Shown: one piece after another, positions 14,725-53,453 of the stretch | Layout of the letters: every line of letters starts with the position of its first letter | Numbering within the stretch: position 1 is the stretch's first letter | Assembly (NCBI GenBank): GCA_017471705.1 | Contig: JAFUSH010000034.1 | Location: forward strand, 43,934-107,933 | DNA length: 64,000 nucleotides | Reading direction: 5' to 3' | Source: Alphaproteobacteria bacterium | GTDB taxonomy: Bacteria > Pseudomonadota > Alphaproteobacteria > RF32 > CAG-239 | Program-made: the position numbers and the translations under genes | Notes under the pieces: generated by a model | Databases searched by the model: none | Told to the model about the DNA's origin: nothing | Seen by the model: the letters and a program-made list of their open reading frames with translations, nothing else

Positions 14725-16398
14725 ATGTATTTCAAGCTCAATAAAAAGATAATTTACAGTATGCTGAGTCTTCTGGCGATTATGGTTATCATTTTTTTGG
14801 TAATTTTTACAAATTTGTATTCGCAAAAATTACAAGATAATCAGAATTCTGTTTATATCCGCAATCAATATGTAGTCAGTTTGTTATACGATAAGGTGCG
14901 TATGCAGAAGCAACTTGCGGAAATATCAGCGAAATATCCGGAACTTATTACAGATAAAAATTTATTGCCGCTAAAACAGGGTATTAATACGGCTCAACAG
15001 GAATTAAGTAATGAACAAAAATTGAGCGATGAGCTTCGGCAAAATTACGATAATAACAGGGAAGCCATTATTACCGGTGCCAAAATCGTAGGCATAAGCG
15101 CATTGTTTGTAATATTTTTTATTTTACTGATGCTGTTTTTGCTGGATTATTGGGTGATAATGCCGGTAGAAAAGTTAATTAAAATCAGTAATAACGTCTC
15201 ATCCGGTATTTTTTCCAGCCGTCTGGAAATGCCGGAAAACAGGCATTTTAAGGATGAATTTGATATTTTGTTCCGCACGTTTAACAAAATGCTGGAAAAT
15301 ACCGAACAAAATATTGAAGAAAGCAAGTTGAGAGAACTCTTTTTGCAACAGCTTATAGATGCCATACCGGACGGGGTGCGGGTTATTGATAAAGATTTTA
15401 ACGTAATAATGGTCAATCGCTCTTTTTACGGATTGTTAAAATTAAAAGAAAACTGTACCGAAAAAAAATGCTATGAGGCATACGGGTTTGATGATTGCGA
15501 CGGTTGCCCGATAAGCAGATATAATTGTCCGGTTCGTCATTTTAAAGATGATACAACCGATTTACACACCATTCACGAGGTCGGAAAAATTCCGTTATAT
15601 GTTAATGCAACTCGCCTGATTTTCGGAAAAAATAAGCAAGATTACTATATCGTTGAAGCAATTCACGATTTGAGCGGTGATGTTCGCTTTTCACATCAAC
15701 AAAAAGTATCATCTCTGGCATTTCTATCTACCTCTATTGCTCACGAAATGAAAAATAATTTGGGAGCAATTCGTCTGATTTTGGAAGGTTTGCTGGATAC
15801 ATCTTATCAATATCTGGATAAAGATAATAACCGCCGAAAATATCTGACTATGGCCTACAATCAATTGGTGGAAACGGTTAAAATACCGGAAAGATTGCTG
15901 AAACTTGCCCGTTATTCCGATGCGGATTACTGTTTAATAGATGTGTCATCATCCGTTAATGATACTATGCTGATGATAGATTACGAAGCTAAACGCCGCG
16001 GAATAGTTATTATTGAAGATATTTCAAATGATTTAGCATTTTGGGGCAATGAAGCGGATTTTAAAATGATGATTCTTAATTTAACGCAAAATGCCATAAA
16101 AGCTATGCCTAACGGCGGCGAATTAAAAATAACAGGTGTTAAAAAATCTGCTAATATGGTTTTGAGTATAAAGGACACAGGAATAGGCATAGATGAAAAG
16201 CAGATTAAACATATATTTGAACCGTTTTATTCGGCAAACAGCTATGCTAAAAGCTCAGGGTTAGGGTTGGCAATAGTCAGCAGTTTGGTTGAAAAAAGCC
16301 TCGGAACAATAAGCGTAAAGAGTAAATTAGGGAAAGGTACGGAATTTACTATAAAGATTCCCGTAAAGCCGAAAAAAAATTCTCCGAGTAAATCATAA
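14725..16398 (+). CDS. sensor histidine kinase (2 TM, cysteine-rich PAS-like sensor domain, HisKA, HATPase_c)
   Basis: H-box SIAHEMKNNLGAI. N, G1 and G2 boxes: NLTQNAIKAM, IKDTGIGID, GLGLAIV. No response regulator is adjacent. Confidence 0.8.
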   Translation: MYFKLNKKIIYSMLSLLAIMVIIFLVIFTNLYSQKLQDNQNSVYIRNQYVVSLLYDKVRMQKQLAEISAKYPELITDKNLLPLKQGINTAQQELSNEQKLSDELRQNYDNNREAIITGAKIVGISALFVIFFILLMLFLLDYWVIMPVEKLIKISNNVSSGIFSSRLEMPENRHFKDEFDILFRTFNKMLENTEQNIEESKLRELFLQQLIDAIPDGVRVIDKDFNVIMVNRSFYGLLKLKENCTEKKCYEAYGFDDCDGCPISRYNCPVRHFKDDTTDLHTIHEVGKIPLYVNATRLIFGKNKQDYYIVEAIHDLSGDVRFSHQQKVSSLAFLSTSIAHEMKNNLGAIRLILEGLLDTSYQYLDKDNNRRKYLTMAYNQLVETVKIPERLLKLARYSDADYCLIDVSSSVNDTMLMIDYEAKRRGIVIIEDISNDLAFWGNEADFKMMILNLTQNAIKAMPNGGELKITGVKKSANMVLSIKDTGIGIDEKQIKHIFEPFYSANSYAKSSGLGLAIVSSLVEKSLGTISVKSKLGKGTEFTIKIPVKPKKNSPSKS

Positions 16399-20777: not shown

Positions 20778-21500
20778 TTATATATCCTCCTTGGTCAAAG
20801 CGCGAAAGGCTTCATTTATATTTTTGCAACCGGTTTTTTTGAGTAAATTCGGCAAATCGGCATCGGCTTTTATCTGCCCTTTGTCAATCAGAATAATACG
20901 GTTACAGACGGATTCGGCTTCTTCCAATAAATGCGTGGAAATAATGATGGTTTTATTTTCCGACATATTTTTTATCAGAGAACGAATATAGTCTTTTTGG
21001 TTAGGGTCAAGTCCGTCCGTCGGTTCATCTAATAATAAAATCGGCGGATTGCTTATTATGCTTTGTGCAAAACCGACACGGCGCTGATATCCTTTGGAAA
21101 GTGTGTCGATTTTTTGTGACAGAACATTTTCAATATTGGCAACTTGTGCCGCTTTAGTTACCTCATTTTTGCCTAATCCGCGAATTTGCGCCGTATACAG
21201 TAAAAAACGTTTGACCGATAAATCAGCGTAAAGAGGAGAGCCTTCCGGTAAAAAACCGATATTTTCTTTGGCAAATAGAGGATATTGTGCGATGTTTTTT
21301 CCCAAGACTTCAATAGTTCCCGAAGTCGGAGCCAGATATCCGGCAATCATATTCATCAAAGTTGACTTTCCGGCTCCGTTGGGACCGAGAAGCGCGACTA
21401 TATCACCGATATGAGCTTCAAAATTCAAATTTTTCGAGGCTTGAATATCGCCGTAATTTTTGTATAAATTACTAATTCTGAGTGTTGTTTGCGTATTCAT
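20778..21500 (-). CDS. ABC transporter ATP-binding protein (ABC-2 subfamily)
   Basis: Walker A GPNGAGKST, signature LSKGYQRRV, Walker B ILLLDEPT. Confidence 0.85.
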   Translation of the reverse strand: MNTQTTLRISNLYKNYGDIQASKNLNFEAHIGDIVALLGPNGAGKSTLMNMIAGYLAPTSGTIEVLGKNIAQYPLFAKENIGFLPEGSPLYADLSVKRFLLYTAQIRGLGKNEVTKAAQVANIENVLSQKIDTLSKGYQRRVGFAQSIISNPPILLLDEPTDGLDPNQKDYIRSLIKNMSENKTIIISTHLLEEAESVCNRIILIDKGQIKADADLPNLLKKTGCKNINEAFRALTKEDI

Positions 21501-25379: not shown

Positions 25380-26497
25380 ACTTTATTAAATGTTTCATTT
25401 TCGTATTTATAAACGGCGTAACTTTCGCTGACACGGGGTGCGCCGTTATGAAACATTTTATTGCCGAATTCGGTTTTAATCGTTTTATCGTTAAGAGCGG
25501 AAGAAAGTTTATTGTAATCAAATGATTTTGCCTTTTTTACCAGTTCTTGCCACAGTTTCACCGCTGAATAACCGTAAAGAGATAATCCTTCGGTATCCAA
25601 TCCGCTTAAACGCAATTTAACCAAAGTCTCGGCAAATTCAGGATTGTCGTCTTTACCTCGGAGTTCCATAAAATAAGTTCCTTCTGCCCATCTGTCCAAA
25701 TAACGGATATATTCATCGGTAGCACGATATTTATTGGTGAATATAATGAAATCTTCATTTTCTTCACGGATGGCGCGTGCCATTTTGCGAATATTTTTGG
25801 CAGTTCCCAATAAAAAAGCGATTTGATTTTGCTCATCAACAATTTTTTCTGCCAAATCATCGTAATCTTTATTTGTCATTTGATAAGTATAATGTTCAAT
25901 TACTACCGACTTACCGTGACGGGAAAACTCTTTGATAATGGCTTCGGCTTCCTGAGTACTATCACCATCGGCGGAATTACTGACAACAGCTACTTTCTGA
26001 CCGGCAAAAGCAGTGTTATAAAATTTGAAGAAATCCACGGCTTGCTGATTTGTATACCCCAACATTTTAACCAATCCGCTTTTAATTGTTTTAGCCTGCG
26101 AGTAGTTAACGGTTGTCGGAATAATCTGAAAGATTTTAGAGCGGGCAAAAACATCGGCAACCGTATCAAAAGAATTGGCGCAATAAGGTCCGATAACCAA
26201 ATTCAAGGGATTTTCTTTGGAAACCGCCAGCATTTGCGCTGTAGATATAGCCATCGCATCATTGCATTCATCATCAACTTCCAACAGATGAATTTTTTTT
26301 CCCAACAATCCGCCGTGCATATTTATCTCATCGACAGCTTTCTTTACTCCCTTAGAAAGCTCGGTACCTTGCTGCAGATAATCTCCGGCTTTGGGAGCAA
26401 TAAGAGCTACCGTGACCTTAGCATTAACCGGTGCGGATAATAGCAATAATCCGCTTAAAACTATGTATTTACCAAAACAATTCATATCTTTAAGCAT
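25373..26497 (-). CDS. periplasmic substrate-binding protein, LivJ/branched-chain amino acid-binding (PBP type 1) family; orphan
   Basis: Signal peptide, then KVTVALIAPKAGDYLQQGTELSKGVKKAVDEINMHGGLLGKKIHLLEVDDECN: the classical Leu/Ile/Val-binding protein N-terminus. Confidence 0.75.
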   Translation of the reverse strand: MLKDMNCFGKYIVLSGLLLLSAPVNAKVTVALIAPKAGDYLQQGTELSKGVKKAVDEINMHGGLLGKKIHLLEVDDECNDAMAISTAQMLAVSKENPLNLVIGPYCANSFDTVADVFARSKIFQIIPTTVNYSQAKTIKSGLVKMLGYTNQQAVDFFKFYNTAFAGQKVAVVSNSADGDSTQEAEAIIKEFSRHGKSVVIEHYTYQMTNKDYDDLAEKIVDEQNQIAFLLGTAKNIRKMARAIREENEDFIIFTNKYRATDEYIRYLDRWAEGTYFMELRGKDDNPEFAETLVKLRLSGLDTEGLSLYGYSAVKLWQELVKKAKSFDYNKLSSALNDKTIKTEFGNKMFHNGAPRVSESYAVYKYENETFNKVY

Positions 26498-26609
26498 TAG
26501 TTAATTTTTTGTTAATATATCAAAAAAATTTTTATTTGCAATAAATATTAAAAGGTTGCCAATTTACGGATAATGATGTTATATATCATAAGCATTTTAC
26601 GGAGAAAAT

Positions 26610-36191: not shown

Positions 36192-36743
36192 TTATTGGAA
36201 ATTCCATATAATGGTATTTTCTGTCGGCTGGCATACGTCGCGAGCCGCATATTTTGCCACGGGTAAGAAATGCTTGTCACCGTCCCATTCAAAATCAGTA
36301 GAGCCTTTTGAGTTTATTACAGTTATTTTCTGTAAGCTGAGCAGCTGTTCTTTGTTTGCTTTGGTTTCAACTAAACCTATACAGGCTGATTTATTTACTC
36401 CCGCCAAAACTATATCAAAAGTTAAATCTGACGGTAACGCGGTATTACCGTCGACTCCTATTCCGATTTTAAAATCATATTCAGTGTGTCTGAGCAATTC
36501 ATCGCTTACCAATTTATCGTCAATCGCCGTTTCGGTATTCAATTTCCAATAATTGGGATAATCGCGATAATATGCGTGGATATTATCGGCAGTTTGAAAA
36601 ATATGCTCGTGCAGCTTTTGATAAGGGTTGTGCAATAACAGGTAAATCAATGTAATCAAGACCAAGAACAACGATATTATTATAATTAATCCGTTATAAT
36701 TTGTCAGCCTGAGCCTTCTTAAATCTACATACAATTTACTCAT
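36192..36743 (-). CDS. candidate type IVb prepilin-like protein (PilS position); start taken at MSKLYV
   Basis: An 18-aa basic leader ending in G, followed by a ~20-aa hydrophobic segment (NYNG|LIIIISLFLVLITLIYLLL). The C-terminal half contains two Cys ~50 aa apart. It is the last gene of the pil-like operon, after the platform gene. It lacks the canonical Glu5. Confidence 0.35.
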   Translation of the reverse strand: MSKLYVDLRRLRLTNYNGLIIIISLFLVLITLIYLLLHNPYQKLHEHIFQTADNIHAYYRDYPNYWKLNTETAIDDKLVSDELLRHTEYDFKIGIGVDGNTALPSDLTFDIVLAGVNKSACIGLVETKANKEQLLSLQKITVINSKGSTDFEWDGDKHFLPVAKYAARDVCQPTENTIIWNFQ

Positions 36744-45191: not shown

Positions 45192-46841
45192 CTAATACCA
45201 AGGATTATCGGCTCGTTTCATTGCCTTTATCTTGTCATCTTCCGATGCGTATCGTACATTCCTAATAATAAATGAGTTTGGCTCCCTATCGGTAAAAATT
45301 ATGTTAATTTTATGATAATCAACACCATTATTGGCCAAAATCTTGTACAACAGCTTTAAACGCTTTTCCTGCAAAGCGTACGGAGCTGTCTTGTCTATCC
45401 TTATTTCGATAAACACATCTTCGTTTTTCACCGAATTATCTGCGAAAGCGTGTAGCCATTCAAGAGTTTGACCGGAAATTTCCGCCCGATTCGGCTGAAA
45501 AGATAATTTTAATTCGGAAGGAGTAATGTTATCATCATTGCTACCCCCGATGCCTAAAAGCTTATTAAATATTGAACCTTCGCTTTTTTGAGATTTTTTA
45601 TTGTTATTTTTACTTTGAGTTTTCGGAGCAGTGATATTATCGTTACCGGTCTTCTTTTTAGAACCTGAAAACCACTCGGCGATACTGTCCGATAAACTTT
45701 TAGAAGTTTCTTCGTCTGCATCGACATCATCGTCTTCTTCAAAATCTTGAAAATCATCGTCGTTATCATTGTTTGATTTGGTACTTGATGAATTATCAAA
45801 ATATTTATCATCATCTAAGGCCGGAAGTGTGTGTTTGGCACGCAGTTCGCGCTCTAACTTCAAATTTTCTTCCGAAGATGAAAATTGCGGTGTCAGATTA
45901 CGCTCATTCGCAATGTTTTCCGGTATGGGAATGACTAAATTTTTTTGCATTCTGTATTCTTCGGTCGGTTGCTCAATAACTTCCTGATCCGGAGAAATAA
46001 TGTTATCTTGATGCTTTGCCGCGTAAACATTAGCGGAATTTTCCTCAGATTTTTTATTCGAAGTCTCTGCAACTTCCCACGGATTTGTATATCCTTCGTC
46101 GGAAGAAGATAGGCCGGCCGAAAATTCGGATTTCCCAATATATCCGTCGTTATTTACCAACGGTTCGGTCACAGCCGCATAGGTATCGGCTCCCAAATTA
46201 TCGGTACTTACGCCGCTTGAAGCCATAGCAATTTGGTTTTCATCGGCACTGTCCGAAAATACTACAGTTCCGTTTTCCGTTTTATAGTGGTGTACCAAAG
46301 GAATTCTGAAAACCGGAGCTTCAGAGGCATCGGCTATTTGCAATTCTTCGGATTCTTCTTTCGTTTCAGCCACCTCTAAAACAGAAGAATTTTCAGCATC
46401 AGCTATGTCTAAGATAGAGGCATCTTCAATACGCAAATCATCGTTGTCCGAAACCTTAACTTCGGCGGACTTTTCATCTAATTCGGTATAATCGGTAGTT
46501 TCTGGTCGGTATAGCACTGTATCGGAAGAACCTGATTTGACGCTTTGATTTGAAATCAATTTATCTTCATCGTTATACGGCAATTCATTATGTTGTTCCA
46601 AACTTTTGAATTTGTCATATAACGGATCATTTTCTTCATTGGCGGCAAAAAGCTCAATATTTTGAGCCGGCAAATTTTCAATATATTCTTCCGTCGGTCC
46701 GTTTTCATTCAAAGACAAAACAAAATAAGCCTTGGTAACCGAAAATACGGCAACCAGTGAGAGAATAAAGCTTCCTAAAAAGCATTTTAAACCAAGTTTA
46801 GGCATTCCAAAATCCCATACATTCATTAAAGGTATCGGCAC
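45192..46841 (-). CDS. membrane-anchored highly acidic low-complexity protein (549 aa), first gene of the pil-like operon
   Basis: N-terminal TM/signal anchor LGSFILSLVAVFSV, long D/E/S/N-rich stretches (DNDDDFQDFEEDDDVDADEE), and a conserved-looking ~100-aa C-terminal domain. Confidence 0.45.
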   Translation of the reverse strand: MPIPLMNVWDFGMPKLGLKCFLGSFILSLVAVFSVTKAYFVLSLNENGPTEEYIENLPAQNIELFAANEENDPLYDKFKSLEQHNELPYNDEDKLISNQSVKSGSSDTVLYRPETTDYTELDEKSAEVKVSDNDDLRIEDASILDIADAENSSVLEVAETKEESEELQIADASEAPVFRIPLVHHYKTENGTVVFSDSADENQIAMASSGVSTDNLGADTYAAVTEPLVNNDGYIGKSEFSAGLSSSDEGYTNPWEVAETSNKKSEENSANVYAAKHQDNIISPDQEVIEQPTEEYRMQKNLVIPIPENIANERNLTPQFSSSEENLKLERELRAKHTLPALDDDKYFDNSSSTKSNNDNDDDFQDFEEDDDVDADEETSKSLSDSIAEWFSGSKKKTGNDNITAPKTQSKNNNKKSQKSEGSIFNKLLGIGGSNDDNITPSELKLSFQPNRAEISGQTLEWLHAFADNSVKNEDVFIEIRIDKTAPYALQEKRLKLLYKILANNGVDYHKINIIFTDREPNSFIIRNVRYASEDDKIKAMKRADNPWY

Positions 46842-47030
46842 CGATAAGGCGCAAATATCCCACTATTTTGTTTGAAGATACAACTGATTGTGTTAAAATA
46901 GAGTTAATGATATAAATGAAAGTTGATAAGCCGGAAAAATGTTCAAAATACAGCGGCTGTTGCCATCTGTTTCTCGCGCACGCGCGCAATCTAATACCCT
47001 TGTAATCTGCGGAAAAATTTTGCTTTATAA

Positions 47031-47077
47031 AAAGTTCACAAAAAGTTCACAATTATTTTGCCGAGAATATGTTACAA
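47031..47077 (+). promoter_or_regulatory. tandem 10-bp direct repeat AAAGTTCACA x2 followed by an extended -10 (TGTTACAAT) in the pil/virB2 divergent region
   Basis: Exact tandem repeat at 47031-47040 and 47041-47050. TGnTACAAT lies at 47069-47077, upstream of virB2 paralog 1. Confidence 0.3.
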
Positions 47078-47309
47078 TCAATTTAACACTCAAAGAGTAT
47101 ACCGAAGTTAAACAGAGATATATTTCTTATCAGTTTATTAACCTTTTGGTGTTATTCGTGGTGTGTATAACTGGTGTATTGTAGAAATTTTTGTGAAAAT
47201 TCAGATTGATATAGACAAATGGGATATATTTTAACAAAAGTCTGGAAATTTTTTGTAAAATGATTTACAATAACAGTGTGATTAAGAATATATGTTAAGG
47301 AGAACTGAA

Positions 47310-47672
47310 ATGAAATTCTTAAAAAACAACATTATGAGCATTTTGGGTATGACCTTCTTATTTACGATGGTTATGCTGGGCGATGCAAACGCTACGGTGT
47401 TTGAAGATGTAAAAACAAAACTCGTAGATTTGTTCAAAAATGCTAAAATGGTAGTATTTATTATCGGTGGTTTCGGTTTGATTTGTTTGGCTTTCCAAGC
47501 AATCTTCGGAAAAGTTAAATGGGCTTGGTTTGCTGCTCTGGCTTTCGGTTTGGCCGTTGTGGCTGCTGCCGGTGCTATTATTAACTACGCTGCTAATAAC
47601 GATGTTGCTACCGGTAAGAACTTCTCAGATACATTGGGTGACGGTTCCGGTGCATCTAGTATGGGTCATTAA
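47310..47672 (+). CDS. virB2: VirB2/TrbC-family T4SS pilin, paralog 1
   Basis: Signal peptide followed by two hydrophobic helices separated by a short loop (VVFIIGGFGLICLAFQAIFG...WAWFAALAFGLAVVAAAGAI). AAGGAG RBS before the ATG at 47310. Confidence 0.7.
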   Translation: MKFLKNNIMSILGMTFLFTMVMLGDANATVFEDVKTKLVDLFKNAKMVVFIIGGFGLICLAFQAIFGKVKWAWFAALAFGLAVVAAAGAIINYAANNDVATGKNFSDTLGDGSGASSMGH

Positions 47673-47743
47673 TGCCAAGAATGATATTCGGGGGGAGCCC
47701 AGTCTCTCCCCGAATGTGGTAAAATTTTAAGGCGGAGGTAGAT

Positions 47744-48064
47744 ATGTTGTGCAATAGTATAAAGAGATTTTTGTACGAGAACAGATATGCAATTATCTTA
47801 TTTGTTTCTTTATTCTTTTTCATAACCGATGCCTCTGCTGAGACATTCGGTGCATTATCGACTGCCGGCACGGCAATTTTTCAGGGCTTGCGCAAAATTA
47901 TATATCCGGCGGCTACCATAGGTATAGCCTGTGTTTGTATCGGAGGTATGTTCGGCAGTTTTAACTGGAAGTGGTTAGTGGCAATTCTGTTGGGTGTGTT
48001 TATTATAGCCACGGCTAATTCCGGAAACGGTGTGGATGCTATTGCTATGGACGGCAGTAATTAG
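47744..48064 (+). CDS. virB2: VirB2-family pilin, paralog 2
   Basis: The same architecture (signal; ATIGIACVCIGGMFG...WKWLVAILLGVFIIA). GGAGG RBS. Confidence 0.65.
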   Translation: MLCNSIKRFLYENRYAIILFVSLFFFITDASAETFGALSTAGTAIFQGLRKIIYPAATIGIACVCIGGMFGSFNWKWLVAILLGVFIIATANSGNGVDAIAMDGSN

Positions 48065-48074
48065 GAGAATGCAG

Positions 48075-48473
48075 ATGAAAAGAATCGGCGTATTATGTTT
48101 TTTTATTTTAATTTGTTGTGTTGCTTTTGTTTCTCCGGCATTTGCCGAGCCTTCATCCGGTGATGCTATTTGGACTAAATTAGCTGGCAAGGCCAGTACT
48201 ATAGGGGTAGGTTTGCAGAAAAGCGGCTTTATTATAGGCGGTATCGGGTTAATCTTTTTTTCATTTATGGCAATTTTTAACAAGATATCGTGGAAGAATC
48301 TTGCCTATATTATGCTGAGCTGTTTTGTGCTTTCGGCAATGGTTGCATTGGTTAATTATTTTTCGGCAAAAGATGCAACCAGTACGGCTTCGTACTCAGA
48401 ATTTAACGGTCCTGACGGCGAGGTTTCTTTTGAAGGAGGCGTAGCTCCTGCCGGAGGGACGGCGCATAAATAG
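48075..48473 (+). CDS. virB2: VirB2-family pilin, paralog 3
   Basis: Signal MKRIGVLCFFILICCVAFVSPAFA and two hydrophobic helices. RBS AGGAGAATGCAGATG. Confidence 0.65.
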   Translation: MKRIGVLCFFILICCVAFVSPAFAEPSSGDAIWTKLAGKASTIGVGLQKSGFIIGGIGLIFFSFMAIFNKISWKNLAYIMLSCFVLSAMVALVNYFSAKDATSTASYSEFNGPDGEVSFEGGVAPAGGTAHK

Positions 48474-51739: not shown

Positions 51740-52040
51740 GTTGCTTCTGATTTCGCGTCATTCTGAACCCTGAGCATAGCGAATGGGTGAAGAATCCATT
51801 TCGTTCCGCCGGAACGAAACAACGCCATCGGCGTTGCTGGATACTTCGCCGCCAATGCGGCTCAGTATGACGATAAAAAGTCAGCGTTGCTTCTTTATTA
51901 TTTAATCGGAAGATCCTCTGATTTTTGCTTTTGGTCACAAAAGCAAAAAAGGGATGACTTTATTGTTATATTTTAGTCGGAAGCCTCTCTGACGATTCCT
52001 GCGGAATCGAGGGGTGACTTTATTATCTTTATAGTAATAT
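51740..52040. repeat. structured intergenic element with a 22-bp perfect palindrome, a long-range imperfect inverted repeat and a degenerate ~60-bp tandem duplication
   Basis: ATTTCGTTCCGCCGGAACGAAA (51798-51819). CGTCATTCTGAACCCTGAGC versus GCTCAGTATGACG. Units AATCGGAAGATCCTCTGA...GGGATGACTTTATTGTTAT and AGTCGGAAGCCTCTCTGA...GGGGTGACTTTATTATCTTT. GC-enriched relative to the flanks. Confidence 0.4.
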
Positions 52041-52226
52041 CTCCGAATGCACGGTGAAGTAAATTGGTCAATATTCTTAATAATAGACAATTTGTCCATT
52101 AAAATGTAACAAAAATTTAACATTTTTTTTATTAAAATTGTGATACACTAATAAAAGGAGAATGGGTTTACTTTGCGCTGAAGATATGTTAGCATAAGAA
52201 TATCTGGGCACTACAGGGAGGTTATT

Positions 52227-53453
52227 ATGATGGTAAATACAAAGAGATTCAATATTTTGGCCGGCGTTGCCTTTATGATAACGTTTGCGGCGCCTGATGC
52301 AAAAGCTTTTCCGTTGCTTTGTGGGGATCCTTCCCGTTTAGTAGCCAGCGCTAAGGTTACAATGCAGGAAATTATGATAATCAAGCAAGAAGTTGAGAGT
52401 AATCTGCGAATCATTGAAGAAATTCGCAACGGTGGCTTTGCCGCAGCCGGTGCGATGATTTTCGAGAAAATTCAAAACGGTGATTATGATCGCTTCGGTA
52501 AAGCTTTGAGTAATGTTAAAACCAATGCGCAGGATATGGCACATAATGTGGCGGAACGTGAAGAAAGAGCTAAAAGGGAAAAAGAGCTGAGAGAAAGCGG
52601 TATGAGCGCTAAAGAAGCTAAGGCTAAGGCTCAACAAGAATCCGCCGAGAGAATGGTAGAATGGCAGAAAAAACAAGACGAAGCCAGAGAAAAAGCTAAA
52701 TCTGAGCGCGGTTCAAACGCTTTTACAAATTCGTATAACTGGCTGAAAAATAATCAATCATTTACCAGCGGCGCCAGCACTGCTTTAAGAGGTGTTGACA
52801 GCGGCAATTGGGGACAGGCTTTAAGCGGTGCGGCAGGTGCCACCGGAGGTGCAATCAACAGCGGCGGCGAATCCACACTCGGAAACATTTTCCAAAATGC
52901 GGCAGGCGGTGCCGGAAATGCTCTGAACAGCGCGCTTGACGGCAATTGGGGTAATGCCTTTAATGCAGCGGCCGGAGGCGCCGGTTCCGCAATTGGCGGC
53001 GCGACTGGATCCGAAGGTATCGGTAATACCATCGGTGCGATTGGTAATATAGGCGCCGGTGCTTATGATGCTATCAGCAGCGGCGATGGTTTCGGCGGTA
53101 CCGTAAATAATTTAATTAATAACAACCAGATAAACTCCGGACTTACCGGTTTAGAGAACGGCTATAATCAAACACAGGAAGAGCGCGAGGCCGCGCTTAA
53201 AGCTCAAGAAGAAGCTGCGAAAAAACAAGCCGAGGAATTAAAAAAAGGATTAGACGAACAGATAAAGAAGGATCAAGAAGAGAGAAAGAAAGAGCAACAG
53301 AAAAAATGTCAGGAATGCCGTAAAAATGCTCAAGCCGGAGCAGAAGCTGCGGCGAAGGCTGCCGGTAAAACGGGATTGGCGGCTCAAGCAGATGCAGAAG
53401 CAAGGGTTAATAGCCAATGTTTAAGTGCTTGCGGTGGTTTTTCAGGTATGTAA
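52227..53453 (+). CDS. secreted coiled-coil / glycine-rich GNWG-repeat protein with C-terminal CxxC...CxxxC motif (paralog A)
   Basis: Signal peptide, an N-terminal coiled coil, two ~47-aa Gly/Ala/Asn repeats (GNWGQALSGAAGATGG...; GNWGNAFNAAAGGAG...), a Lys/Glu coiled coil, and a C-terminal CQEC...CLSACGG. Confidence 0.6.
   Translation: MMVNTKRFNILAGVAFMITFAAPDAKAFPLLCGDPSRLVASAKVTMQEIMIIKQEVESNLRIIEEIRNGGFAAAGAMIFEKIQNGDYDRFGKALSNVKTNAQDMAHNVAEREERAKREKELRESGMSAKEAKAKAQQESAERMVEWQKKQDEAREKAKSERGSNAFTNSYNWLKNNQSFTSGASTALRGVDSGNWGQALSGAAGATGGAINSGGESTLGNIFQNAAGGAGNALNSALDGNWGNAFNAAAGGAGSAIGGATGSEGIGNTIGAIGNIGAGAYDAISSGDGFGGTVNNLINNNQINSGLTGLENGYNQTQEEREAALKAQEEAAKKQAEELKKGLDEQIKKDQEERKKEQQKKCQECRKNAQAGAEAAAKAAGKTGLAAQADAEARVNSQCLSACGGFSGM

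Follow-up and report, generated by a model that had tools for sequence, protein, structure and literature searches.

Recurrent putative operator and promoter module between a type IVb pilus operon and a type IV secretion cluster in uncultured gut Alphaproteobacteria

The 64,000-nucleotide stretch analysed here (the window; part of contig JAFUSH010000034.1, assembly GCA_017471705.1) belongs to an uncultured gut/rumen alphaproteobacterium and carries a minus-strand type IVb pilus (pil) operon that diverges from a plus-strand VirB-type type IV secretion system (T4SS) cluster beginning with virB2. In the gap between them, a direct repeat of TTCACA hexamers and the extended -10 element TGTTACAAT form a module that recurs in the T4SS cluster and, judged from its sequence, is very likely an operator-plus-promoter of T4SS genes. 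With moderate confidence, we interpret the gap as two physically separable, outward-facing promoter units, of which the T4SS unit would consist of an activator-dependent operator and the extended -10.

The window is chromosomal DNA with AddAB, MurJ, UvrA, TyrRS, ribosomal protein L17 and other housekeeping genes. VirB4 homologs with 74-97% identity were found in more than 200 species-level genomes from the rumen and from human, primate, horse, rabbit and chicken gut. These genomes are labelled Alphaproteobacteria, Rhodospirillaceae, CAG:495 or Candidatus Scatocola, and NCBI files the clade under Rhodospirillales or as unclassified. A literature search returned no papers on type IV secretion in RF32 Alphaproteobacteria. 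Gene arrangement was compared in 80 related loci, which gave 64 informative species; the composite pattern described below was searched in 91 fetched, T4SS-centred loci, and the intergenic alignment comprised 27 regions of 320-637 bp. The species whose VirB4 is 97% identical is referred to as the sister species, and single loci are given by their L numbers.

Promoter module of the type IV secretion genes

The divergent gap between pil and virB2 described in the first-pass annotation is real, but its bounds had to be corrected. The GTG at 46841, taken there as the pil start, is merely the start of the longest open reading frame (ORF), and the ATG at 46805 is kept in all relatives and was chosen by an independent gene caller. 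Because the conserved start is this ATG, the intergenic region is 46806-47309 (504 bp, GC content 0.31). The pil(-)/virB2(+) arrangement is present in 55 of the 64 informative species, which agrees with a conserved divergent control region.

The 10-mer AAAGTTCACA, earlier described as an exact tandem, is present in two copies (47031-40 and 47042-51), but these do not abut. The repeated unit is AAAAAGTTCAC, with an 11-nt period and 2.2 copies that are 100% identical (47029-47052). No further copy of the 10-mer, one mismatch included, was found in the window. The extended -10 noticed in the same annotation is TGTTACAAT and was placed at 47070-47078. The repeat alone and TGTTACAAT alone are each unremarkable, since neither exceeds chance: Tandem Repeats Finder listed 41 rows with a score of at least 30 in the window, so short exact duplications are not rare, and a generic promoter scan gave 5 sites versus 4.6 in shuffles, its terminator part being likewise uninformative.

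Together, the repeat and the extended -10 constitute one module, TTCACA-N5-TTCACA followed after 18 nt by TGnTAnnnT. The hexamers of the operator (47029..47052, plus strand) lie at 47035-47040 and 47046-47051, and the -10 hexamer (47073-47078, plus strand) lies 21 nt past them. The predicted transcription start is at about 47085, which places the operator centre at about -42. A search for further copies near T4SS or surface-protein genes, proposed in the first-pass annotation, revealed a second module 5 kb past the first (52106..52149, plus strand). It reads GTAACA-N5-TTAACA, 18 nt, TGATACACT (52141-52149), with a predicted start at about 52156, and lies 78 nt upstream of a gene for a 408-aa secreted protein (52227-53453) located after virB4.

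The composite pattern KTMACA-N5-KTMACA-N18-TGNTANNNT has two matches in the 128 kb of strand of the window, both on the plus strand (47035-47078 and 52106-52149), and none in 100 shuffles. The simpler pattern TGTKAM-N5-TGTKAM has two window matches versus 0.18 expected. Among the 91 fetched loci, matches to the composite were confined to the two orthologous places. Nineteen operator instances were found in 10 species, all nineteen followed by TGnTAnnnT at a gap of 21-22 nt, or of 32 nt with a third 11-nt unit between; such a third in-phase unit is present in L004, L009, L011, L013 and L014. In the sister species the repeat and TGTTACAAT are unchanged, amid adjoining flanks that are roughly 50% diverged. 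The two module copies of the window have the motif in common without sharing their flanks, and therefore do not represent a mobile repeat. Given the fixed spacing, the recurrence and the lack of composite matches in shuffled sequence, the repeat and TGTTACAAT are very likely a genuine operator and promoter.

Clade-wide operator and its rewiring

About 50 other species possess an 18-bp element, TGTGAATTTTTTGTTACA, at a fixed -127 to -155 from the ATG of virB2a and in the orientation opposite to that of the window operator. This element is itself a direct repeat with an 11-bp period, TGTGAAt-tttt-TGTTACa. On the minus strand the window repeat reads TGTGAACTTTTTGTGAAC and matches the 18-bp element at 14 of 18 positions. 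A weight matrix was built from the plus-oriented element of 55 other species, the window being excluded. In the 128 kb of strand it ranked the site at 52105 first, a site in an ATP-binding cassette (ABC) transporter gene second, and the repeat of the intergenic region (47034) third. The second-best match (21104-21121, plus strand, TGTCGATTTTTTGTGACA, 19.8 bits) lies in an ABC-transporter ATPase gene on the other strand and is probably due to chance.

Ten species, among them the window species, the sister species, L004, L005, L008, L009, L011, L013 and L014, lack the usual plus-oriented element. The same ten species possess an inverted operator copy nearer to the promoter and another inverted copy just after virB4. 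At the ancestral position the window has a degenerate leftover of the plus-oriented operator, TGTAGAAATTTTTGTGAAAA (47180..47199, plus strand), with a matrix score of 9.9 versus 25-28 elsewhere. The copy at this position is degenerate in both the window and the sister species, and the two sequences differ. A VirB4 neighbour-joining tree places every species that has the -42 module in a single clade; therefore, one ancestral rewiring best explains why the operator was inverted, shifted to about -42 and duplicated.

The post-virB4 module was found in the window, L003, L004, L005, L008, L009, L011, L013, L014 and L083-L088, and only in the clade with the inverted operator. L004 has two post-virB4 copies, one ahead of each paralogous gene. 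Other species have a post-virB4 gap of 70-160 nt without an operator.

Closer to virB2, the alignment shows conservation of a block TTATCAATTTATTTAC, of the 18-bp element, of a promoter CTGGAAA-17-TAnnAT and of a strong Shine-Dalgarno sequence. In the window, conserved block B is TTATCAGTTTATTAACCTTTTGGTGTTATTCG (47127..47160, plus strand). The proximal virB2 promoter (47243..47271, plus strand), conserved clade-wide, includes the -35-like TGGAAA (47243-47248) and, after 17 nt, the -10 TACAAT (47266-47271). Its predicted start is at about 47278, and the Shine-Dalgarno sequence AAGGAGAA is at 47297-47304. Most species of the clade have an oppositely oriented operator, located about 90 bp ahead of the start predicted for the proximal promoter. 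CTGGAAA...TGC was discarded as a sigma-54 promoter, because its GG-GC spacing falls 2 nt short and its GC lacks conservation.

Promoter of the pilus operon

On the pil side, the minus strand carries a CtrA-type box, TTAACTCTATTTTAAC (46892..46907), which reads TTAA-N7-TTAAC toward pil and corresponds to a perfect consensus. CtrA-activated promoters, a pilin promoter among them, normally have TTAA-N7-TTAA at the -35 (PMC11264516, PMC6180460). The window has only four TTAA-N7-TTAA sites, the pil box among them. Near pil the motif is present in 40 of 56 loci, beside the conserved GATACAAC, with conserved half-sites and a variable spacer. The distance from the box to the pil start is conserved, at about 85-110 nt when counted to the conserved ATG; other values in some loci arose because an upstream in-frame ATG was picked.

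Eleven nucleotides past the box is the predicted pil -10, TATCTT (46875..46880, minus strand), within the conserved block GTTGTATCTT. The -10 position is TAnnnT in all relatives, ATACAAC is also conserved, and the alignment near pil shows ATACAAC-N6-TGTTAAAATAGAGTTAATG and a stem-loop as conserved features. The start predicted from the conserved TATCTT is at about 46868, so that the box would be centred at about -32. The stem-loop (46831..46862, minus strand; GGGATATTTGCGCC...GGTGCCGATACC) begins about 6 nt past this start, in the predicted pil 5' untranslated region (UTR). Per-sequence folds show the hairpin in 25 of 25 species, with modest z values of -0.2 to -3.2. The stem sequences differ between species, and the differing inner stems suggest compensatory changes. 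RNAalifold predicted no pairs on the MAFFT alignment of the pil 5' UTR, because the variable stems are misaligned in it.

A conserved AAAnAAAGT lies 9-10 nt to the plus side of the box (window 46918-46923). It could be the -10 of a plus-strand promoter using the box, or part of the pil upstream region. Interpretation of the box (block A) as purely a plus-strand extended -10 was discarded: the TG is not conserved, and both TTAA half-sites and the downstream GTTAAT are.

The distant group L059-L082 lacks the pil box, and its 18-bp element is unchanged. Another conserved sequence, CTCTTGGCAAG(G)CAGATATA.ATTTATGCACAAA, is found there about 40-80 nt upstream of the first pil gene. Elsewhere in the window, two overlapping TTAA-N7-TTAA sites, one of them the perfect TTAACAAAAAATTAAC, lie at 26490-26515, between a periplasmic-binding-protein gene and uvrA, and may be another CtrA-type site.

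Two separable promoter units

The first-pass annotation regarded the gap as a single control region shared by both operons. The divergent region is conserved, as described above, but it comprises two separate promoter units about 200 bp apart. Between them is a hypervariable spacer (46910..47126), 29-308 nt long in relatives, which hosts the upstream T4SS module in the window species and its sister. L040 has 1.3 kb of extra DNA between the units, including a GIY-YIG-like ORF. In eight species no complete pil operon adjoins the T4SS. Six of these have no pil operon within 10 kb, and L047 and L068 are arranged otherwise. In L068 the pil operon and the T4SS genes have the same orientation. Four of those six have a detectable virB2a (L030, L036, L055 and L061), and in these the virB2-proximal blocks are kept and are bounded by the terminator of an unrelated gene. 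The spacing of the 18-bp element is fixed to virB2a and not to pil, the module points into T4SS genes only, and the pil operon has a different conserved element (the box at 46892-46907). Moreover, each unit was rewired in a separate lineage in which the other unit is unchanged. The variable spacer and insertion, the retention of the virB2 unit without adjacent pil, the spacing fixed to virB2a and the independent rewiring indicate that the two units are separable.

Co-regulation of the two machines, the other earlier proposal, is not supported in that form and is possible in a weaker sense only. The pattern KTMAC-N6-KTMAC has 5 matches in the window versus 1.67 expected; four are intergenic, and three of these are the pil, virB2 and post-virB4 promoters, each facing its gene. 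The elements of both units thus belong to the same half-site family, although the units are separate and were rewired independently. Both elements are direct repeats phased at 11 bp, a type of site that OmpR/CtrA-family response regulators bind, and a shared regulator is therefore possible. Nevertheless, about 50 species conserve the T4SS operator at its non-TTAA bases and in its A/T-run spacer, so a distinct specificity fits at least as well.

Proposed mechanism and alternative explanations

PhoP, a member of the OmpR/PhoB family, recognises direct repeats of 7 bp separated by 4 bp, or repeat units of 11 nt (PMC4832192, PMC2275107). The 11-bp phasing of the repeats, their place at about -42 and their presence at two units of one cluster led us to propose an activator-dependent promoter (PMC4832192, PMC2275107). 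The TTCACA hexamers, 11 bp apart, would serve as a direct-repeat operator in the usual place of a -35, upstream of TGTTACAAT. A winged-helix response regulator of the OmpR/PhoB/CtrA family may bind them as a head-to-tail dimer and recruit RNA polymerase. As the same module precedes the post-virB4 gene, one regulator would activate at least two T4SS transcription units. The putatively older proximal promoter, TGGAAA-17-TACAAT, would persist between the module and virB2a. The pilus unit would consist of the CtrA-type box over the -35 region, then TATCTT, then the stem-loop of the 5' UTR.

Several points weigh against this interpretation. All transcription start sites are predictions from -10 hexamers, and no response-regulator gene was found in the 64 kb window; an orphan histidine kinase gene is at 14725-16398. 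The composite pattern was framed after the sites had been seen, although the half-sites are derivable from relatives alone, and the module instances are orthologous or paralogous copies in related genomes, which amount to few independent events. The virB2 operator, TTCA-N7-TTCAC, has two mismatches to the CtrA consensus. Finally, the pil box overlaps on the plus strand with TGTTAAAAT (46891-46899), a good extended -10 with TTGAAG 16 nt upstream, so that a plus-strand promoter at this place is possible.

The best of the alternatives, which we regard as possible but on the unlikely side, is a factor shared by both units. Either CtrA or a close relative would act on the pil box and on the T4SS operators, or the pil box would fire both ways, so that pilus and T4SS are made together. 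A single CtrA site that activates two divergent promoters is documented in Rhodobacter (PMC6180460). This alternative is consistent with the fit of both elements to KTMAC-N6-KTMAC, with the same 11-bp phasing and each toward its own operon, with the post-virB4 operator GTAA-N7-TTAAC, one mismatch off the CtrA consensus, with the strongly conserved synteny of the operons and with the conserved AAAnAAAGT beside the box. Against it, the conserved bases and spacer of the T4SS operator point to a specificity unlike that of the pil box, which scores poorly by the operator matrix, with no match listed there. Each element also varies alone: L059-L082 are without the pil box and have the same operator, and the clade with the inverted operator has the same pil box.

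A broader version of this scenario is fairly doubtful. In it, one CtrA-like response regulator would switch on both members of a vertically inherited, chromosomal pair, a retractile type IVb pilus and a VirB-type T4SS, via 11-bp-phased repeats, and the T4SS operator would have undergone inversion, a shift from about -90 to about -42 and duplication, all in one ancestral event.

It is improbable that the repeat is a neutral slippage duplication and TGTTACAAT a chance occurrence in AT-rich DNA, with virB2 driven solely by the proximal promoter at 47243-47271. In the 27-region alignment, the repeat and TGTTACAAT sit in the hypervariable spacer and are missing at this position from the other 26 species. 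Chance would also agree with the abundance of short tandem duplications in the window, with a promoter scan without excess over shuffles and with the clade-wide conservation of the proximal promoter. It does not account for the same composite, with the same spacing, recurring after virB4 and in nine related species, nor for the 14/18 match of the repeat to the clade-wide operator. Furthermore, the module is exact in the sister species amid diverged flanks, whereas the ancestral operator copy decayed.

Invertible promoters for surface structures are common among gut bacteria, and the operator orientation is opposite between lineages. The repeat (47035-47048) and the decayed operator (47184-47197) flank a 135-bp segment with TGTTACAAT as 14-nt arms, 135 nt apart and complementary at 13 of 14 positions, and a flip of this segment would redirect the promoter from virB2 to pil. 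Such a switch is nevertheless very improbable. The window, L001 and five aligned sister assemblies, from different samples, have one orientation; all six sister assemblies match the plus-strand pattern, as do L085 and L087. The arms can be accounted for as copies of a single operator, the window contains no recombinase gene, and between lineages only the 18-bp element flips, without any flanked segment.

Gene content of the two operons

The minus-strand operon runs from 46805 to 36192 and encodes, in this order, a 537-aa protein, a TcpQ-like protein, a PilN/BfpB-type secretin, PAP_PilO, a 542-aa protein, a T2SSE ATPase, a T2SSF platform protein and a 183-aa protein. The first gene (45192..46805, minus strand; conserved ATG 46805) encodes a secreted, highly acidic protein with no Pfam family. 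The secretin matches TIGR02520 with 272.9 bits (E 5e-81), slightly below the 287.65-bit cut-off, and BfpB with E 1e-49. Its TcpQ-like partner matches PF10671 (TcpQ), and the assembly ATPase (PF00437), the platform (PF00482) and PilO (PF06864) were all matched. A PilT-like ATPase gene adjoins the operon on the opposite (plus) strand.

The 183-aa protein, which resembles type IVb pilins, is the product of the last gene of the operon (36192..36743, minus strand). An invariant Gly (Gly18) closes its 18-aa leader; a hydrophobic helix and two invariant Cys are also present, and Glu at +5 is absent. Its AlphaFold2 model has a predicted local distance difference test (pLDDT) value of 81. The top 14 matches of the model in the PDB are only type IVb pilins (TcpA, CofA, the enterotoxigenic E. 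coli pilus 9iuf and PilS), with probability 0.28-1.0, template modelling (TM) scores of 0.27-0.58 and E about 1e-2. No Peptidase_A24 match for a prepilin peptidase was found in the scanned window ORFs, and the gene may sit elsewhere in the genome. Judged from family matches and this model, the pilus operon is a complete type IVb set with its own predicted pilin, the prepilin peptidase being the only component not found among the scanned window ORFs.

On the plus strand, the genes encode three VirB2/TrbC pilin paralogs (47310-47672, 47744-48064 and 48075-48473; span 47310..48473), a 146-aa protein, a VirB3-like protein, VirB4, five signal-peptide proteins and VirB8. The nearest solved relative of VirB4 is TrwK. 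The products of the five ORFs that separate VirB4 from VirB8 carry signal peptides, without family matches and without a polytopic membrane region, and no VirB6/TrbL match was found in them even at E up to 5. In L089/L090 (10001-20756), which are from the same species and extend past the window end, follow a 62-aa ORF, a second VirB8, a 552-aa VirB9/CagX, proteins of 1014 and 486 aa without strong family matches, and a 1412-aa VirB10 with Bflower-type domains. VirB8 is thus present in two copies around the 62-aa ORF, and VirB4 and VirB9 are single in the stretch covered. No VirB6/TrbL match was found anywhere in the T4SS cluster, the L089/L090 continuation included. Relaxase, coupling protein, shufflon and integrase were not found in the window, nor were relaxase, coupling protein and integrase in the 10 kb downstream of VirB8. 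In L047, L053, L068 and L070 no VirB2 homolog was detected upstream of VirB3/VirB4.

VirB2-type pilins and type IV pilins follow unrelated assembly routes. A composite organelle, in which a secretin-bearing type IVb basal body assembles or exports VirB2 pilins, had also been suggested and has next to no probability. Nothing beyond the adjacency and conserved synteny of the operons favours it. Against it, the pilus operon supplies a type IVb pilin-like subunit of its own (class-III-type leader, Gly at -1, Cys pair, TcpA/CofA/PilS-like fold) with a full ATPase/platform/secretin set and a PilT-like ATPase, the VirB2 genes are grouped with VirB3, VirB4, VirB8 (two copies), VirB9 and VirB10, and in eight species the T4SS persists where no complete pil operon adjoins it. 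The label rvh, given earlier to the T4SS, was also not retained: the clade of the host carries no Rickettsiales label, the genes lie in one contiguous cluster, and no expansion of VirB6 was found.

Other features of the intergenic region

An Rfam scan of 46500-47700 with E up to 1 gave no match, and the 228-nt leader from the predicted distal start folds no better than shuffles (z = -0.68). Two small ORFs in the spacer, of 29 aa (from 46917) and 81 aa (46939-47184), are not conserved even in the sister species, where a stop after 9 codons and a lost ATG are seen. At 46975-46987 the AT-rich spacer contains a 13-nt G+C-rich tract of alternating purines and pyrimidines, CGCGCACGCGCGC, where the sister species has CGCACACGCACGCACG. 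Short palindromic intergenic repeats ending in ...CTCGGAATGACA or ...GGGGTGACTTTATT are present at 51890-52030 of the window, at about 7620-7730 of L027, in four tandem copies, and upstream of virB2a in L034, L040, L050, L055 and L076. This repeat family explains much of the variation in spacer length in the clade.

Significance

Although uncultured, the host bacteria are common in gut metagenomes of humans, primates, ruminants, horses, rabbits and chickens. The present analysis provides a putative cis-regulatory code for them, composed of an 18-bp operator in about 60 species, a module marking T4SS units and a CtrA-type box on the pilus operon. Such a code could be used to find the remaining regulon in complete genomes, which may give pointers to effectors or targets, to fish out the regulator and to read the activity of the system in metatranscriptomes. 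If one regulator did control both units, this would point to a dedicated state of attachment and injection, or of cell-to-cell transfer or killing. The locus is also a clean natural case of operator turnover, in which the operator was inverted, moved and duplicated in one clade and the neighbouring promoter is unchanged.

Comparison with known systems

Among T4SSs, the vir box of VirG is an example of an activator-dependent promoter of the OmpR/PhoB family. Similar to the pho box of PhoB/PhoP, the T4SS module has two 6-7-bp direct repeats, a 4-5-bp A/T spacer and an 11-bp period (PMC4832192, PMC2275107). The repeats are likewise in the -35 place upstream of a good -10, and the layout is found at several units of one regulon. 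However, the half-site K-T-M-A-C-A is neither a pho-box nor a vir-box sequence, and in most species of the clade the operator is about 90 bp upstream and in the opposite orientation.

Similar to CtrA promoters such as that of Caulobacter pilA and the divergent fla2 promoters of Rhodobacter, a perfect TTAA-N7-TTAAC lies over the predicted -35 of the pilus operon, with conserved half-sites and a variable spacer (PMC11264516, PMC6180460). Unlike in those systems, the pilus is of type IVb (PilN/BfpB type) and not Tad/Cpa, and the virB2 operator departs from the consensus at conserved positions.

The rvh T4SS resembles the present cluster in its several VirB2 paralogs, in the order VirB8, small ORF, VirB8, VirB9 and in its alphaproteobacterial host. 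It differs in that the hosts here are gut/rumen metagenome-assembled genomes (Rhodospirillales or unclassified), the cluster is contiguous, and the five post-VirB4 ORFs have neither a VirB6/TrbL match nor multiple hydrophobic segments.

A pairing of pilus and T4SS is also known from the thin pilus of IncI1 R64, from IncI2 TP114, PAPI-1 and pYR4, where a PilN-type lipoprotein secretin, PilO, an ATPase, a platform protein and a type IVb pilin are encoded beside a T4SS, as in the window. In those conjugative elements the pilus holds donor and recipient together and stabilises mating (PMC9045228, PMC5297154, PMC6232867). In contrast, the T4SS here is VirB/Trw-like, with no relaxase, coupling protein, shufflon or integrase in the window, and the pair is chromosomal, flanked on the pil side by housekeeping genes and inherited across 55 of 64 species.

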